Source: Gemmatimonadota bacterium
GTDB taxonomy: Bacteria > Gemmatimonadota > Gemmatimonadetes > Palauibacterales > Palauibacteraceae
DNA length: 64,000 bases
Direction: 5' to 3'
Assembly: GCA_965116475.1 (NCBI GenBank)
Contig: OZ220691.1
Span: 192,001-256,000 of the forward strand
Below the pieces are notes generated by a model that was given only the letters and a program-made list of their open reading frames with translations, was not told the DNA's origin and ran no database searches. Position 1 is the stretch's first letter, and the number at the start of each line of letters is the position of its first letter. Of this stretch, positions 30,977-36,954 are shown in pieces. The translations under genes and the position numbers were made by a program.

Positions 30977-32049
30977 GTGGCATCAGTGGAGCAGGCGCGT
31001 CTGTCCTCCGCCGGCGGCTCGGCCTCGTCGCGATGGCGGCGTTGACGACCTGGGCGTGCGGCGACGGGGGCGCCGACAGGCCGCTTGATGTTGATTCGAG
31101 CAGGCAGGTAGCGGTGAGGGAGCTGGCGCAGGAACTGCCGCCCGCAGGCCTCCTTTCGGACGACCTCTTCCTGGAGACGGCCCGAGGGTTCGATCTGTTT
31201 GGAGACACGGTCGCGGTTGCGGACCGCATGGCGGGGCGGGTCCAGTTGTTTCGCGCGTCGGGGGAGCATATCGCGACCTTGGGCGGCCCGCTGGGGCCGG
31301 GGGATCCCGAGATCCTTGAGTCCCCCTGGCGCGTCCAATTCGCGCCCGATGGCGCATTATGGGTCGGCGATCCCGGGCGGGCAGCGCTCGTACGGTTTCC
31401 TTCCGGAGGCGGCGAGCCGCAGGCCGCACGGCTTCCGGGAGCGGCGGTGGCGACGACCGTTGGATTCGGGGTCGACCATGTCCTCGGCGCCATCGGGCTC
31501 AGCGCCCAACCGGGTTTTCTGCTTGCGGTGTACGGGTTGGCGGACGGGTCCCTGAACATCCCGAACGAAGTTCCGCTTCCCGAGGAGTTGGCGTTTAGTC
31601 CGATAGACCGAATAAGCGCCCAGCATGTCATGATGTCGGTCGGACGGGAGGGGGAGGTGATCCTCCTCGACGGGGTGCGGACGACCCTGTGGCGAATCGA
31701 GCTGGAATACGATCCGCCCAGGATCGTCCGTGTCTCCCGCCTCGCGGTACCCGATTGGCTGGTTCGGAGCACGCGGGCCGAGATGGAGCGGCGCGTCGAG
31801 GGCCGTCCCGGCGTCAGTGCGCCCGGGTTCAAGGATATGCGGGCCGACAAGCGGGGGGTGTGGCTCGTCCCGGCGATCGATCCGGTGGACGGAGTATTCC
31901 TGCCCTACGAGGAGGATGGCCGGGCCACCGTGTTGTGGCGCGATCCGCAGCGCCGGGAGGCTTGGAGCAGCCGCATCCTGGACGACGATACGGCTTGGCT
32001 AATGTTCCCGGAGAGTCTCATGCGGTTCACTGTCGCCGAGGGAGGCTGA
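30973..32049 (+). CDS. Putative 6-bladed beta-propeller (NHL-like) lipoprotein
   Basis: RRRLGLVAMAALTTWAC lipobox-like segment; NHL-like blades VAVADRMAGRVQLF...GEHIATLG and PDGALWVGDPG. Confidence 0.72.
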   Translation: MSGISGAGASVLRRRLGLVAMAALTTWACGDGGADRPLDVDSSRQVAVRELAQELPPAGLLSDDLFLETARGFDLFGDTVAVADRMAGRVQLFRASGEHIATLGGPLGPGDPEILESPWRVQFAPDGALWVGDPGRAALVRFPSGGGEPQAARLPGAAVATTVGFGVDHVLGAIGLSAQPGFLLAVYGLADGSLNIPNEVPLPEELAFSPIDRISAQHVMMSVGREGEVILLDGVRTTLWRIELEYDPPRIVRVSRLAVPDWLVRSTRAEMERRVEGRPGVSAPGFKDMRADKRGVWLVPAIDPVDGVFLPYEEDGRATVLWRDPQRREAWSSRILDDDTAWLMFPESLMRFTVAEGG

Positions 32050-32053
32050 CCTT

Positions 32054-32761
32054 TCATCGGATCGCGGGGGAGCCGAGGAGGTCGGCGCGGCCCTCGATGT
32101 CGAGGAGGGCGCGCTTGTAGCGGAGTCCGCCGGTGTATCCGCCCAGCGTCCGGTCGGCCCGGACGACCCGGTGGCACGGCACGATGATCGGGATCGGATT
32201 GCGGCCGAGCGCATTGCCCACCGCGCGCGATGCTCTTGGACGGCCGATGCGCCGGGCGATGTCGGTGTACGTCACCGTCTCGCCGAACTCGAGTCCGGAG
32301 GCGGCGTTCAGTACGGCGCGCTGAAAGTCGCCCAGTTCCGTGAGGTCGACGGAGAGATCGAAGCGAGGGCGGCGACGGCCGAAGTACTCCGTAAGCTGCG
32401 CTTCCGCGGGCGCGAGCAGGTCGGAGTCGCACACCACGGGCGTCGACGGATGCCGGCGCTCGAGACCGGCGAGGAACGCGCCGTCGCTCTCGTCCTGCCA
32501 TGAGAGCGCGACCAGGCCGGCCGCGCTCGACGCGATGCGCATGGCACCAAACGGAGAACCGAAGCGGTGCCAGCGGATGACCGGGCCACCCCGGAGGCCC
32601 TCCGCGGTGCGATGCAGCATCCGGTATTCCACCGCGCGCTCCCGACAGACGGGGCACGCCGCCATGCGTTCGGCGAGTTTCCGGGCGGCGTCCGCATCCG
32701 GATCGCCCAGGACCCAGGCGAGTACGTCTTCTTCGTGACAGGTCGCGCAACGTCGCGTCAT
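32054..32761 (-). CDS. ogt: Methylated-DNA--protein-cysteine methyltransferase with N-terminal Cys-rich (anti-sigma-like) domain
   Basis: RAVGNALGRNPIPIIVPCHRVV active site. N-terminus CATCHEE...RMAACPVC. ATGA overlap with the upstream sigma gene. Confidence 0.9.
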   Translation of the reverse strand: MTRRCATCHEEDVLAWVLGDPDADAARKLAERMAACPVCRERAVEYRMLHRTAEGLRGGPVIRWHRFGSPFGAMRIASSAAGLVALSWQDESDGAFLAGLERRHPSTPVVCDSDLLAPAEAQLTEYFGRRRPRFDLSVDLTELGDFQRAVLNAASGLEFGETVTYTDIARRIGRPRASRAVGNALGRNPIPIIVPCHRVVRADRTLGGYTGGLRYKRALLDIEGRADLLGSPAIR

Positions 32762-33309
32762 AGCGGCCCCTCCTCGCGCCACACCTCGGCGAGGTCGCGG
32801 CGCAGCTTCTTCATTCCCTGGTAGACGTTGGCGCGGGCGGCTTCGGACGTGCAGCCCAGCCGGTTGGAGATCGTCGCGTAGTCCATCTCTTCGATCCAGC
32901 GGAGCCAGACGGCGTCCCGCTGCCGGCGGGGGAGCGCCGCGACACCCTTCCGGACGCGCGCCACGGCGGCCTCGGAGAGCCGATCCAGCGCCGCATCGGC
33001 CGCCGCAGCCGCGGCAACGGTGCCGGACCTCAACTCGTCGGAGTGGGCCGTGAGCAACGCCGCGCGCCGGCGCCTCATGGCGAGGTGGTCGAGCGCCCGC
33101 CGCGTCACCACCCGGTACAGCCAGGCACGGATGTTGGAGGCGTCCCCCGTCTCGGGCCGGGCACGGATCGCCGTCATCCACAGGTCCTGCACGATGTCCC
33201 GGGCCTCGTCCGCGTTGCCCAGCATCGCGGCCACATGGCGCTGCAATTCAGGCCCGTATCGCTCGGACCAGCGCCGCACCCCGTGTGCCGACTCCGTGCC
33301 TGTGGTCAT
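32758..33309 (-). CDS. ECF RNA polymerase sigma factor
   Basis: Region 2 (EARDIVQDLW...IRAWLYRVV) and region 4 (LPRRQRDAVWLR...YATISNRLG...ARANVYQGMKKLR); 183 aa. Confidence 0.9.
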   Translation of the reverse strand: MTTGTESAHGVRRWSERYGPELQRHVAAMLGNADEARDIVQDLWMTAIRARPETGDASNIRAWLYRVVTRRALDHLAMRRRRAALLTAHSDELRSGTVAAAAAADAALDRLSEAAVARVRKGVAALPRRQRDAVWLRWIEEMDYATISNRLGCTSEAARANVYQGMKKLRRDLAEVWREEGPL

Positions 33310-33531
33310 CTGCCTCGGATCCGCCTTTCAACCCTTGCCAGCGCTCGTTCTCGCTCCTTACAACGTATCGCCCCGGAAACCGTGAAAACGGGCGCGCACC
33401 ACAGGCCGTGCCGCAACTGGCCACGCGAACGCGTGAATCGTACCGTGTGGGCCCGCGACCCACCCGGGCCTGAAGAGCACAGCGGCGGCGGGCGCGCCGT
33501 CCGACATCCAATCCGCAGAACCGAGGCTCCC

Positions 33532-34683
33532 TTGAAATCAGCACATATCGGACCCGTATCGTCCCCGACCCGCATCGCGGTCTCGTTCGCGGCCGCGTTC
33601 CTTGCGACGGCCTGCGCCGCCGACGCCGGAGAGGAAGCCGATGCCGCCACCAATCAGAACGGCATGGAGGACGGCGCCGAGAACGCCGCCGTGATGCACG
33701 ACCCGCTGCCGGAAGAGCGGCGATTCGCCAGCCTCGCCCAACTCACCTTCGAGGGGGAGAACGCCGAAGCGTACTACTCCTCGGACGGGCAGCGCCTGAT
33801 CTTCCAGCGCCGGCACGAGGGCGAGTACGAGTGCGACCAGATCTTCACCATCGGCGTCGAGGGCGGTGAGCGGAATCTCGTCTCGACGGGCCTGGGGCGG
33901 ACCACCTGCTCCTACTTCTTCCCGGACGACTCGCGGATCGTCTACAGCTCCACGCATCATGTGGCGCCCGAGTGTCCTCCGCCGCCCGACATGCGGCGCG
34001 GATACGTATGGGCGCTGTACGACTTCGACATCTACACGGCGAACCCGGACGGTTCCGACGTCCGGACGATCTTCTCGAGTCCCGGTTACGACGCGGAGGC
34101 GACCCTCGCTCCGGACGGTTCGCGGATCGTCTTCACCTCCACGCGCGACGGAGACCTGGACATCTACACGATGAATCCCGACGGCTCCGACGTCCGGCAG
34201 CTCACGAACGAACCCGGATACGACGGCGGGCCCTTCTTCTCCCCCGACGGATCGAAGATCGTGTACCGGGCGAGGTACCCCGAGAGCGCGGAGGAACTCG
34301 CGGACTACCAGGCGCTCCTGGCCGACGGTCTCGTCCGTCCCGGCGTGCTCGACATCTACGTGATGGACGCGGACGGCTCGAACCGGGTGCGCCTCACGGA
34401 CAACGGGGCCGCGAACTTCGCCCCCTTCTTCCACCCGAGCGGCGAGAAGGTGATCTTCGCTTCGAACCTGCACGAGGACGATCCCCGCAGCCGCAATTTC
34501 GACCTCTTTCTCGTGAACCTGGACGGGACGGGGCTGGAGCAGGTGACGTTCAGCGAGGAGTTCGAGAGCTTCCCCATGTTCAGCCCGGACGGCCGTTATC
34601 TCGTGTTCGGATCGAACCGGCACGGGTCCCACGAGGGCAACACGAACATCTTCATCGCCGAGTGGATCGACGACCTGCCCTGA
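33532..34683 (+). CDS. TolB-like WD40/PD40 repeat lipoprotein
   Basis: FLATAC lipobox; repeated SPDGSRIVF/SPDGSKIVY/HPSGEKVIF/SPDGRYLVF blades. TTG start uncertain. Confidence 0.87.
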   Translation: MKSAHIGPVSSPTRIAVSFAAAFLATACAADAGEEADAATNQNGMEDGAENAAVMHDPLPEERRFASLAQLTFEGENAEAYYSSDGQRLIFQRRHEGEYECDQIFTIGVEGGERNLVSTGLGRTTCSYFFPDDSRIVYSSTHHVAPECPPPPDMRRGYVWALYDFDIYTANPDGSDVRTIFSSPGYDAEATLAPDGSRIVFTSTRDGDLDIYTMNPDGSDVRQLTNEPGYDGGPFFSPDGSKIVYRARYPESAEELADYQALLADGLVRPGVLDIYVMDADGSNRVRLTDNGAANFAPFFHPSGEKVIFASNLHEDDPRSRNFDLFLVNLDGTGLEQVTFSEEFESFPMFSPDGRYLVFGSNRHGSHEGNTNIFIAEWIDDLP

Positions 34684-34812
34684 TCGACGACCTGTCTGGC
34701 GGTCCGTGGCCGCCCGTGACCGACATCGCCCGTGGGCCGTCTAGTCTCTGAAGACAGTCCCGGCGGCGAACCGGCCGCCCGGGGCGGAGACCGGAAGACA
34801 CGGGAGCTTGGG

Positions 34813-36954
34813 ATGCGGTTCGCAAACGCGACAGGAAACTCTGGAGCCCCCTGGCGGTTGCGGGGCCGGCGGCGGGTGTGGGCGGTCGGGGTGGCATGGG
34901 GCGTCTCGTTCGCCGCGCCCCCGGTCTCCGCTCAGGAGGCGGAGGTCCCGATCGATTACGACGCCGCGATCGCGCAGAACGGGATCGAGGGCAGCTACGG
35001 ATATCTGCGCGCGCTGGACGGGTCCGCGACGCTCATTCAAGGGGACACCCGCGAGCGCGTCCAGCTCGCCGTGAACGAGCCCGTCCTCGTCGGCGACCGG
35101 ATCTTCGCGTCCGGCGAATCGCGCGTCGAGATTGCGCTCGCCGATGGCAACCTCGTCCGGATCGGGGATCGGGCGGAACTTGTCTTCCGCGCGCTCGCCA
35201 ACTCCGCGGATACGAGCGATCCCGCCTCCATTCTCGAACTCGCGCGCGGGTCGCTTCAGCTTCTGGTGGCCGCGAACCCACCGGGGGCCGAATGGCCCTC
35301 CATCATCACCCCGAACGGGACGATCCGGCCGCGGGGAGCCGGCTCCTTCCTGATCGTCGTCGACGACGAACGCCGTAGCGAGGTCGTCGTGCGCGAAGGC
35401 GTGGCGGAGGTCACGACAGAGACGGAACTCGCCGAGGTTCGGCGCGGGGAGAGCCTCTTCGTCGAGGGTGTGCGAGGGGACCGGCTCCGCTTCGCGGCGG
35501 CCCCGAATCTCGATGGTCTGGAGGCGTGGGGCCAGGGGCTCGGCGACTACGCGGGCGGGGAATACACCGCTCATGTGGACCCGGACCTCCACTACGCGGC
35601 GTCTTCGCTCGGAGGGCACGGGTCGTGGGTCCATGTCGACGCGGGGGTCGCCTGGCGTCCGCGGGTGTCGACGGGCTGGGCGCCGTACCGGCACGGGCGG
35701 TGGCGACACACGCCGAGCGGGATGTTCTGGGTCTCGTACGAACCGTGGGGCTGGGTGCCCTACCACTACGGGTACTGGGACCTCGATCCCGACTGGGGCT
35801 GGATCTGGTTCCCGGGCCGGAGTTTCGCCGTCGCGCACGTGTACTGGTACTGGGGCCCGAGCTACGCGGGCTGGATTCCCTCGGGATACTACTGGCGCCA
35901 CTACCGGAACTATTACGGGAGCAGCTGGGGCTTCCACTTCGGGGTCTACGGGCACATCGGGGGCGGCTTCGGGCGCTATCGGCACTGGACCTTCCTGCCG
36001 CACGGGCGCCTCGGACACCGGCGACAGCACTTTTACTCGGTGGGCGGTTCGGACTTCGGTCGCGGGCGGAGGGCGGTCGAGCGCGGCGTGCTGCTGACGG
36101 ACTCCCGCCTGCTCGGGCGCCAGGCGCAACGGCGACCCGCGCAGACGCTCGCAAGCCTCAGGCGCGCGGTGGCCCGTGACGGGAGAACGGCCGTCGATGC
36201 GAACGGCTTCATCGATCGCGGCACGAACCTGCCGCGTGAAGTCGAACGCGTGGTGCTGCGAGGGCGCGATGGCCGGTCGGCCCGCCCGCGCGACGCGACG
36301 GCCGGGGCGCGGAGCGACCCCTCGCGGGCGACCGGCGCGCCACCGGTACGCGTTACCACGCGGTCGGCGGAGGGCGGCACCGTGCGGCTGGAGCGGCCCG
36401 GAGTGCAGCGAGCGACGCGACCCGGCGTCCAGCGGGCGACGACGCGGACCGGCGTGCAACGGACGACGCCGCCCGCGTCCGAGACCGGCGCCCGCGCGGC
36501 GATCCGGCGGCCCACGACACGGGATGTTTCCGGCGGCGCGAGACGTCCCGCCGTGCGACCCTCGATACGGTCGGGTTCCGGCGGCGTACAGCGCGCATCC
36601 CCGCGGAGGGGCGACGACGGCGTCCGCCGGATCGTCCGTCCGCGGACGGCCCGGGAGCAGCCGGCCGTTCGGCCTACGACGGCGAGGCCGTCCCGGCCGG
36701 TCCTGCGACGTCCGCCGTCGACGACGAGACCCGTGATCCGGCAATCCATCCCGCGGTCACCGCGGCCCGCGGTGCGCCCCCCCGGCTCGTCAAGGTCGAG
36801 CGGCACCGTCAGAAGATCCGGCAGCGGGTCCCGGTCCGGAGGCGCGGTCCGCCGCTCCAGCGGCAGCTCCCGATCCGGGGGCGCGGTCCGCCGCTCCAGT
36901 GGCAGTTCGCGGTCGACCGGTGCGGCCCGCGCCCGCGGCCGGTCCGGGGGTTAG
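34813..36954 (+). CDS. FecR-like + DUF6600-like secreted protein with Arg/Ser-rich disordered tail
   Basis: N-terminal GDRIF...SRVEIALADG..VRIG FecR-like region; W/Y-rich WAPYRHGRW...EPWGWVPYHYGYW; low-complexity C-terminus. Confidence 0.8.
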   Translation: MRFANATGNSGAPWRLRGRRRVWAVGVAWGVSFAAPPVSAQEAEVPIDYDAAIAQNGIEGSYGYLRALDGSATLIQGDTRERVQLAVNEPVLVGDRIFASGESRVEIALADGNLVRIGDRAELVFRALANSADTSDPASILELARGSLQLLVAANPPGAEWPSIITPNGTIRPRGAGSFLIVVDDERRSEVVVREGVAEVTTETELAEVRRGESLFVEGVRGDRLRFAAAPNLDGLEAWGQGLGDYAGGEYTAHVDPDLHYAASSLGGHGSWVHVDAGVAWRPRVSTGWAPYRHGRWRHTPSGMFWVSYEPWGWVPYHYGYWDLDPDWGWIWFPGRSFAVAHVYWYWGPSYAGWIPSGYYWRHYRNYYGSSWGFHFGVYGHIGGGFGRYRHWTFLPHGRLGHRRQHFYSVGGSDFGRGRRAVERGVLLTDSRLLGRQAQRRPAQTLASLRRAVARDGRTAVDANGFIDRGTNLPREVERVVLRGRDGRSARPRDATAGARSDPSRATGAPPVRVTTRSAEGGTVRLERPGVQRATRPGVQRATTRTGVQRTTPPASETGARAAIRRPTTRDVSGGARRPAVRPSIRSGSGGVQRASPRRGDDGVRRIVRPRTAREQPAVRPTTARPSRPVLRRPPSTTRPVIRQSIPRSPRPAVRPPGSSRSSGTVRRSGSGSRSGGAVRRSSGSSRSGGAVRRSSGSSRSTGAARARGRSGG

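Follow-up and report, generated by a model that had tools for sequence, protein, structure and literature searches.

A DNA-repair alkyltransferase with a zinc anti-sigma-type domain as candidate anti-sigma factor of an ECF sigma factor in Gemmatimonadota

What keeps an extracytoplasmic function (ECF) sigma factor inactive, and what would free it, when the gene that follows it encodes a DNA-repair enzyme? The question is raised by a locus in a 64,000-nucleotide stretch of DNA (the window) from a Gemmatimonadota bacterium of the family Palauibacteraceae (GenBank assembly GCA_965116475.1, contig OZ220691.1, positions 192,001 to 256,000), where an ECF sigma gene overlaps the gene of a protein that joins an N-terminal domain of the zinc anti-sigma (ZAS) type to an O6-alkylguanine methyltransferase (Ogt). 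ECF sigma/anti-sigma pairs rank among the major signaling devices of bacteria, and the routes known to release an ECF sigma are proteolysis, redox or conformational change, partner switching, and phosphorylation. An initial annotation of the locus had proposed that the fusion, here termed ZAS-Ogt, holds the sigma factor and releases it upon alkylation. The evidence assembled below makes the first half of this proposal very probable and leaves the second half evenly balanced.

A sigma factor gene coupled to an extended alkyltransferase

The ECF sigma gene, the ATGA overlap, the 235-residue protein, and the Ogt with a PCHR active site that the initial annotation described are all present. The features of the locus are as follows:

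33362-33388, minus strand: ECF-type promoter candidate with -35 TTTCAC (TCAC 33385-33382), a 16-nt spacer, and -10 CGTT (33365-33362), ~50 nt upstream of the sigma ATG
32758-33309, minus strand: ECF sigma gene, 183 amino acids, with sigma2 at residues ~16-82 and sigma4 at residues ~121-170
32758-32761, minus strand: ATGA overlap of the sigma stop (TGA 32758-32760) and the fusion start (ATG 32759-32761)
32054-32761, minus strand: ZAS-Ogt fusion gene, 235 amino acids, with an AlphaFold2 (AF2) model of mean predicted local distance difference test (pLDDT) 91.9
32582-32761, minus strand: N-terminal anti-sigma (ZAS-like) domain, residues 1-60, three helices, with candidate metal ligands C5, C8, C36, and C39
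32342-32578, minus strand: Ogt N-terminal ribonuclease-like domain, residues 62-140; PF02870 (Methyltransf_1N), 25.5 bits against a cut-off of 21
32423-32458, minus strand: extra loop within the Ogt N-domain, residues 102-113 (RRHPSTPVVCDS), a predicted sigma4 contact
32090-32329, minus strand: C-terminal catalytic and DNA-binding domain of the Ogt, residues 145-224; PF01035 (DNA_binding_1), 109 bits against a cut-off of 27, E 8e-32; TIGR00589
32168-32179, minus strand: PCHR active site, residues 195-198, with the codon of the acceptor Cys196 at 32174-32176

The sigma protein belongs to group 4 of the sigma70 family (ECF): it consists of sigma2 and sigma4 domains only, namely Sigma70_r2 (PF04542, residues 16-82, E 2.7e-13) and Sigma70_r4_2 (PF08281, residues 121-169, E 3.5e-9), and its 183 residues compare with the ~180 expected. 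The NCBIfam sigma70-ECF model (TIGR02937) scores 64.6 bits against a cut-off of 42.9. Homologues number 297 at E<=1e-10, and among the 120 listed those with a named source are Gemmatimonadota or Candidatus Palauibacter. The ATGA overlap points to translational coupling of the sigma and the fusion.

This arrangement recurs across the phylum. In a sample of 201 Gemmatimonadota genomes (four of them flagged unpublished), 198 have some Ogt match, and full-length matches to the fusion are found in all eight genomes of the window's genus, its own included, and in two others (G086 and G105). Thirty Gemmatimonadota loci (L083-L112) were fetched, with 14 extended and 16 plain Ogts, two of the plain ones (L100 and L110) coming from genomes flagged unpublished. 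A same-strand ECF sigma gene lies directly upstream, with a -4 overlap, of every one of the 14 extended Ogts and of none of the 16 plain ones. The pairing is far beyond chance, and the coupling of the two genes proposed at the outset thus holds across genomes.

Outside Gemmatimonadota, a scan of species genomes with a generic Ogt active-site pattern, which is no census and among whose listed loci Gemmatimonadota do not appear, kept 80 loci, mostly from Actinomycetota; a sigma homologue immediately precedes the Ogt in 45 of these. The actinobacterial coupled Ogts have 190-224 residues and carry a Cys-less extension of 35-45 residues with the consensus LxRLHxRL...LLDVAYRT. As judged from gene order and domain content, two phyla share the logic of a sigma factor with an Ogt partner. 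A comparison of the ZAS domain with the actinobacterial extension by hhalign aligned only the Ogt cores (residues 63-230 with 41-207) and detected no relation between the two.

Two further kinds of pair occur within Gemmatimonadota. In family f7, the loci L093, L095, and L096 (genomes G128, G155, and G069) hold a third kind of sigma-coupled Ogt of 196-199 residues, whose extension of ~35 residues has no Cys (ERRA..R.V...F..LTGR) and is unlike both the ZAS and the actinobacterial types; these loci keep the -4 overlap and show upstream the motif (G/A)TTTCAC, followed by GGTGTTATAG in L095 and L096. Locus L097 (G089) holds an actinobacterial-type pair in which sigma and Ogt both fall within actinobacterial clades, which suggests inter-phylum transfer of the whole module.

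The N-terminus of the window's fusion reads MTRRCATCHEEDVLAWVLGD...AERMAACPVCRERAVEY and forms, in the AF2 model, helices at residues 10-17, 23-35, and 37-58 that precede the Ogt fold. It keeps a CxxC (C36, C39), has Arg at the expected His position 32, and carries an extra C5-x-x-C8-H9. A search of a protein collection listed 120 relatives of the fusion, nearly all of 227-246 residues with at least 91% query coverage and, where named, from Gemmatimonadota or Candidatus Palauibacter; ten of the 120 have a precomputed match to zf-HC2 (PF13490). In an alignment of 77 of these relatives, position 32, four residues before C36, is His in 66 sequences, Arg in 7, Asp in 3, and Ala in 1, while C5 is present in 70, C36 in 73, and C39 in 71. 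HxxxCxxC is thus found in 66 of the 77, and the family consensus, C-x26-HxxxCxxC, is the ZAS ligand pattern known from RsrA and ChrR. When the orthologues are scanned singly, 45 of the 77 match zf-HC2 at E<=0.01 (best 3.3e-7), through which the window copy can be placed among ZAS proteins by homology.

Searches of known structures point the same way. Against all PDB sequences, the orthologue profile finds Ogt and Ogt-like (alkyltransferase-like, ATL) chains and then, for positions 7-61, anti-sigma domains first, the matches being weak: 3hug_B (E 0.033), DdvA 8rlz_A (0.04), and ChrR 2q1z_B and 2z2s_B (0.15 and 0.17). Lower rows are 8rot_B (CHAT-domain protein, N-terminal part; E 1.1) and 9dp1_A (Ogt part; E 1.3). 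Foldseek with the full fusion model gives significant E-values only for Ogt and ATL chains, the N-terminal domain not having been searched separately by fold. At family level, the N-terminal domain is recognizable as a ZAS-type anti-sigma domain, so that the resemblance to a zinc anti-sigma domain seen initially is borne out for the family, as is the conservation of the domain among the 77 orthologues.

The sigma and the fusion are also predicted to bind each other. One complex prediction, built on a sigma alignment of 69 rows and a fusion alignment of 77 rows, was made in three runs and set beside three controls. The interface score ipSAE is 0.76, 0.79, and 0.79 (median 0.79) for the complex and 0.43, 0.00, and 0.00 for the controls, so that the proposed pairing clears even the best of them; 116 of 157 solved complexes versus 2 of 215 mismatched pairs reach the ipSAE mark, which is approximate here since own alignments were used. 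At least 93% of contacts are common to the runs, and the pLDDT of the partner is at least 86. In the model, the confident interface is formed on the sigma side by residues 25-81 (sigma2) and 112-174 (sigma4) and on the fusion side by residues 10-61 as well as 97, 101, 104-111, and 113.

The second group of fusion residues draws attention to the loop at 102-113. A joint alignment shows it to be well conserved in the ZAS-Ogt family (R103 89%, P108 96%, V109 88%, V110 89%, and D112 98%), to hold S-P-R (100% each) and L110 (100%) in the actinobacterial coupled family, and to be gapped in 20 plain operon Ogts. The predicted placement of this coupled-family loop on sigma4 is support that is independent of any memory of ZAS structures. 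The complex model thus supports binding of the fusion to the sigma, and that ZAS-Ogt is the anti-sigma factor of its ECF sigma appears very likely.

Alkyltransferase, promoter, and neighboring genes

The Ogt part has the PCHR acceptor Cys and both Pfam domains above their cut-offs, as expected of an Ogt or O6-alkylguanine alkyltransferase (AGT). Its fold matches M. tuberculosis OGT (4wxc) with a Foldseek E of 3e-14 and a TM-score of 0.86 on the target. C196 is invariant in all 77 orthologues, as are H197, R198, N188, and E223. The Ogt part is therefore complete, with an intact active site, and is predicted to act as a suicide alkyltransferase. The second PF01035 gene of the genome (1946413-1946652, minus strand, G000:C1, locus L082, outside the window) has PWHRV rather than PCHR and thus no acceptor Cys, so that it would be ATL-like and the fusion would be the only Cys-active Ogt of the genome. 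No Ada_Zn_binding domain (PF02805), AlkB-type oxygenase, PF09859 oxygenase, or Tag is found in this genome (one contig, 96.3% complete).

The promoter guess of the initial annotation, TCAC-N16-CGTT, is exact at 33385-33362 on the minus strand, is conserved in the genus, and agrees with the published motif of the sigma group ECF122 discussed below. A block of the form TCACGG(T/A/G)TTC...(G/A)(A/T)TACGTT lies upstream of the sigma gene in all seven other same-genus loci. Between -150 and +60 relative to the sigma start, 33 of the 44 coupled loci from Actinomycetota contain the pattern TCAC-N16/17-CGT[CT], versus 6 on the opposite strand and 0.5 in shuffles; with the window's own locus set aside, 8 of 13 Gemmatimonadota loci contain it, versus 0 on the opposite strand and 0.1 in shuffles. 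Several actinobacterial loci have a second copy of the motif upstream of a plain ogt.

Throughout the window's genome, TTTCAC-N16-CGTT yields two matches, one being the operon's own promoter, versus 0-3 in shuffles, and TTCAC-N16-CGTTN yields 14 versus 5-10; the looser T[TC]CAC-N16/17-CGT[TC] with an open reading frame (ORF) start falls at 238 places that show no pattern. The regulon in this genome is probably just this operon, while the same sigma type in Actinomycetota would additionally drive plain ogt, alkB-like, and other repair genes.

In the latter phylum, the genes beside the pair were annotated with Pfam in a hand-picked sample of 54 flanking ORFs from 31 coupled loci. A second, plain Ogt stands beside the pair in 11 of the 31 loci, a PF09859 "oxygenase of damaged DNA" downstream in 8, an AlkB-type 2-oxoglutarate-Fe(II) oxygenase directly downstream in 3, and Tag in 1; at least one of these four is present in 19 of the 31. 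Small methyltransferases lie beside the pair in three loci and a PNPOx-like protein lies downstream in three; apart from Clp_N proteins in five loci, the remaining neighbors are unrelated. Such alkylation-repair operon mates fit an Ada-like adaptive response. Five loci of mycobacterial type (L003, L015, L020, L024, and L037) have a Clp_N protein directly upstream of the sigma-Ogt pair; a Clp adaptor-like neighbor of this kind would fit proteolytic removal of spent Ogt.

The window's own pair has no repair-related neighbor. Its flanking genes encode a PGI-like protein, an unknown protein, a PD40 propeller, and a FecR/DUF6600 protein, from which sigma and fusion are taken to form a two-gene operon. 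The fusion gene and a convergent plus-strand ORF that ends at 32049 have their stops 4 nt apart (32049-32054), with no space for a separate terminator. The product of the FecR/DUF6600 gene (34732-36954, plus strand) has 740 residues, its FecR and DUF6600 domains being accompanied by a long low-complexity tail rich in Arg, Ser, and Gly; within the examined part of the window, this gene has no sigma gene as an immediate neighbor.

A run recorded as a sponge metatranscriptome contains a 1345-nt contig from a relative of ~98% identity that covers 32363-33705 and spans the sigma/fusion junction. The contig extends past the promoter and DNA carry-over is possible; contigs carry no transcript ends, and it is therefore no evidence of a transcription start. 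Parts of the stretch 32363-33705 also occur in several sponge and reef metagenomes, which suggests a sponge-associated habitat of the genus.

Sigma release by alkylation and its alternatives

The preferred reading joins these elements into a self-contained alkylation-response module. Sigma and ZAS-Ogt would be co-produced by translational coupling, and ZAS-Ogt, as a soluble class-I-type anti-sigma factor, would keep the sigma inactive with its helices between sigma2 and sigma4 and its N-domain loop on sigma4. The Ogt part would act as a working suicide alkyltransferase, and transfer of the alkyl group from O6-alkylguanine to Cys196 would irreversibly spend the protein. The two domains of spent ZAS-Ogt would then loosen and the protein would be degraded, as for other AGTs, which are described in parts of PMC4605297 as permanently inactivated by alkylation, destabilized through the contact between N- and C-domain, and subsequently degraded in vivo. 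Because the predicted contact surface with the sigma includes the N-domain, an alkyl group on C196 could loosen the hold on sigma4 directly; alternatively, its effect could run via proteolysis of spent ZAS-Ogt. Once free, the sigma would transcribe its own TCAC-N16-CGTT promoter and so replace the consumed enzyme. For this chain as a whole, with alkylation-driven release and autoregulation, the chances appear even.

A more specific version would make the module a stoichiometric consumption homeostat: each O6-alkylguanine repaired would irreversibly spend one ZAS-Ogt and free one sigma, such that transcription counts lesions and refills the pool, and the seemingly rebuilt Cys4 site of the genus could be a second alkyl acceptor. 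Taken together, these two suggestions are somewhat less likely than not.

Several points weigh against the alkylation-response reading, some at the level of the domain and others at that of the chain. Neither the whole window protein nor its first 67 residues match zf-HC2 even at E up to 10, and the first 60 residues have no Pfam match of their own at that threshold; the zf-HC2 assignment therefore stands for the family (45 of 77) and fails for the window copy, which reads R32-x3-C36-x2-C39 in place of HxxxCxxC. Since ZAS-sigma complexes have already been solved, the helix part of the complex prediction may reflect memory of those structures and pass through likeness. The catalytic C-domain lies outside the predicted interface, so that coupling of alkylation to release must run via the N-domain or proteolysis. 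No second promoter target can be named in this genome by the motif scan, whose counts do not exceed those in shuffles. The N-terminal extensions cannot be aligned between the two phyla, and the actinobacterial evidence consequently transfers via the kinship of sigma and Ogt core and not via the anti-sigma domain. The narrow background of the sigma tree and the late naming of the coupled Ogt clade, both detailed below, count in the same direction. Binding in the cell, enzyme activity, alkylation-triggered sigma release, and autoregulation are the parts of the chain that we infer.

The best-surviving alternative places the sensor in the ZAS domain, after the manner of RsrA or ChrR. The sigma would be freed by oxidants, by electrophiles, or by alkylators at the Zn thiolates; the site may be a Cys4 one in the genus, recalling the methyl-acceptor site in the N-domain of Ada, and the Ogt would be only an output. 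ZAS redox sensing is an established mechanism, and C5, C36, and C39 are each kept in at least 70 of the 77 orthologues. All six sequences with Arg32 and intact C36/C39 (the window copy and five others) have gained Cys8, giving C5-x2-C8 ... C36-x2-C39, from which it appears that the metal site is being maintained; this pattern suggests a His-to-Cys ligand swap that yields a Cys4 site in the window's clade. Cys8 is additionally present in five His32 orthologues, and the methyl-accepting N-domain of Ada uses a Cys4 ligand set.

Other orthologues have lost the site. C5 and C39 are missing together in 6 of the 77, the behavior expected of one metal site, and four of these also lack C36 and four also lack H32, but the domain and PCHR persist in all six; in one of them (G082, locus L089) the upstream sigma gene and its -4 overlap are retained as well. 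Some lineages thus seem able to do without zinc, which tells against a conserved sensor role of the thiolates and weakens the initial suggestion that alkylation of the Zn thiolates releases the sigma. The actinobacterial partners, whose extension is Cys-less although the coupling is kept, and the invariance of C196 in 77 of 77 orthologues speak against it as well, and sensing by the ZAS domain is considered unlikely.

The binding model, which does not involve the catalytic domain, and the motif scan, which finds no regulon beyond the operon, would also suit an arrangement in which ZAS-Ogt binds the sigma and the state of the Ogt is no signal: release would come from general proteolysis, dilution, or another partner, and the fusion would merely guarantee that Ogt is made with the sigma. 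This arrangement leaves unaccounted for (i) the intact full Ogt that is invariably found in the anti-sigma position in two phyla, (ii) the N-domain loop that is specific to the coupled families and conserved at the predicted interface, and (iii) the alkylation-repair genes among the actinobacterial operon mates, and we rate it as quite unlikely. That the two proteins do not bind at all, the sigma being controlled elsewhere, for example by transcription, and co-transcribed with an N-terminally extended repair enzyme, would agree with published group data in which ECF122 has no anti-sigma factor (PMC7826278 supplement) and with the window copy's lack of a zf-HC2 match, but it is highly improbable in view of the family-level ZAS signature, the strict -4 overlap, and a complex model that passes its controls.

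Relation to known systems

The closest catalogued relative of the locus is ECF122. The supplement of Casas-Pastor et al. 2021 (NAR, PMC7826278) lists this group as 100% Actinobacteria with "no putative AS factors", Ogt at +1, and a role "involved in DNA damage repair", and gives its promoter motif as CTCAC (-35) / CGTCTAC (-10). A passage of PMC8999054 likewise describes ECF122, with a representative from Cellulomonas, as having no anti-sigma factor, conserved 6-O-methylguanine DNA methyltransferases, and an unknown mechanism. The supplement of PMC7826278 also pairs Ogt with Ada_Zn and TetR in ECF203; these pairing terms for ECF122 and ECF203 do not occur in its main text. The window sigma resembles ECF122 in having an O6-methylguanine methyltransferase gene at +1 and in its promoter, TTCAC-N16-CGTTGTA versus CTCAC / CGTCTAC, where the -10 differs in the last bases. 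It differs in that it comes from Gemmatimonadota, outside the published range of 100% Actinobacteria, and in that its Ogt carries a recognizable ZAS domain that cannot be aligned with the Cys-less actinobacterial extension.

A quick maximum-likelihood tree of 70 sigmas, collected with a profile of the window's own family, has a starred branch (SH-aLRT 96, length 0.71) that separates 57 Ogt-coupled sigmas (43 actinobacterial and 14 from Gemmatimonadota) from the 12 other ECFs of this genome, which are the only background of the tree, and from one long-branched Binatia row. The window sigma is ECF122-like rather than a proven member, the tree being a surrogate for assignment with the hidden Markov model of the group. 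In a free quick Ogt tree with weak deep nodes, the coupled Ogts split into two places, the ZAS and the actinobacterial types. A tree that holds 59 coupled Ogts together, a clade named only after the tree had been seen, is 15.8 log-likelihood units better and is not rejected (p-AU 0.69). A single origin of the module is compatible with the data, as a possibility and not a demonstrated descent. In the free tree, the plain operon Ogts fall into a separate starred clade at a distance from the coupled ones, which indicates that the coupled Ogt is a specialized paralogue and not merely a local repair enzyme.

The initial annotation had added that sigma-ogt adjacency may occur elsewhere, which is correct, as ECF122 and ECF203 attest; its statement that no mechanism of this kind has been characterized is fair as to the mechanism, while the sigma-Ogt pairing was already catalogued in these two groups. 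In the open literature searched, which leaves subscription journals outside, no anti-sigma-Ogt fusion is described and no ECF122 experiment is found; in the accessible part of a study of M. smegmatis alkylation repair (PMC7432924), "sigma" occurs only as the name of a reagent supplier. Relative to this literature, as far as its texts were available, the ZAS-Ogt form and the reading of the Ogt as the anti-sigma factor are new, and the pairing itself is not.

The ZAS-Ogt form of Gemmatimonadota would offer the simplest explanation of why ECF122 is catalogued without an anti-sigma factor, namely that the Ogt is the anti-sigma factor. If the alkylation-response reading is true, irreversible self-alkylation of an anti-sigma factor would be a further route of ECF sigma release, and its homeostat would be distinct from the proteolytic, redox, and partner-switching modes of ECF sigma control. 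It would also provide an adaptive response to alkylation that is independent of Ada, and the module would be a compact, orthogonal alkylation biosensor.

Among characterized anti-sigma factors, the fusion is most comparable to the ZAS factors of the pairs RsrA-SigR, ChrR-SigE, and RslA-SigL (3hug, 2q1z, and 2z2s). It shares with them a soluble N-terminal helical domain, a (C/H)...HxxxCxxC pattern in most orthologues, a gene directly downstream of the ECF sigma gene, and a predicted position between sigma2 and sigma4. The differences lie in the C-terminal putative sensor, which is a complete suicide alkyltransferase where the ZAS factors have a cupin, a transmembrane segment, or nothing, and in the window copy itself, which has Arg for His and a second CxxC and whose family gives weak PDB sequence matches (E 0.03-0.17).

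Compared with Ogt and MGMT proteins, such as M. tuberculosis OGT (4wxc/4bhb) and S. solfataricus OGT (4zye), the fusion has the same two-domain fold, PCHR, and both Pfam domains, and destabilization upon alkylation is documented for that family in passages of PMC4605297. It differs by an additional 60-residue anti-sigma domain and by the conserved N-domain loop at 102-113.

The module would resemble E. coli Ada in its logic. In both, irreversible self-alkylation of a repair protein would become transcription of repair genes, its own gene included, and the Ogt core of the fusion is homologous to Ada-C (partial NF011964 match over residues 62-224; 1sfe match). NF011964 (Ada) matches only the C-terminal part of Ada in the fusion, at 82.9 bits versus a cut-off of 345. 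Unlike Ada, the fusion is without PF02805, of which there is none in the genome, and without an AraC-type domain, for which it has no Pfam match. The signal of Ada is methylphosphotriester repair, whereas the fusion would respond to the repair of O6-alkylguanine at its C-terminal Cys, and the output of the module would be the release of a sigma factor rather than an activated DNA-binding activator.

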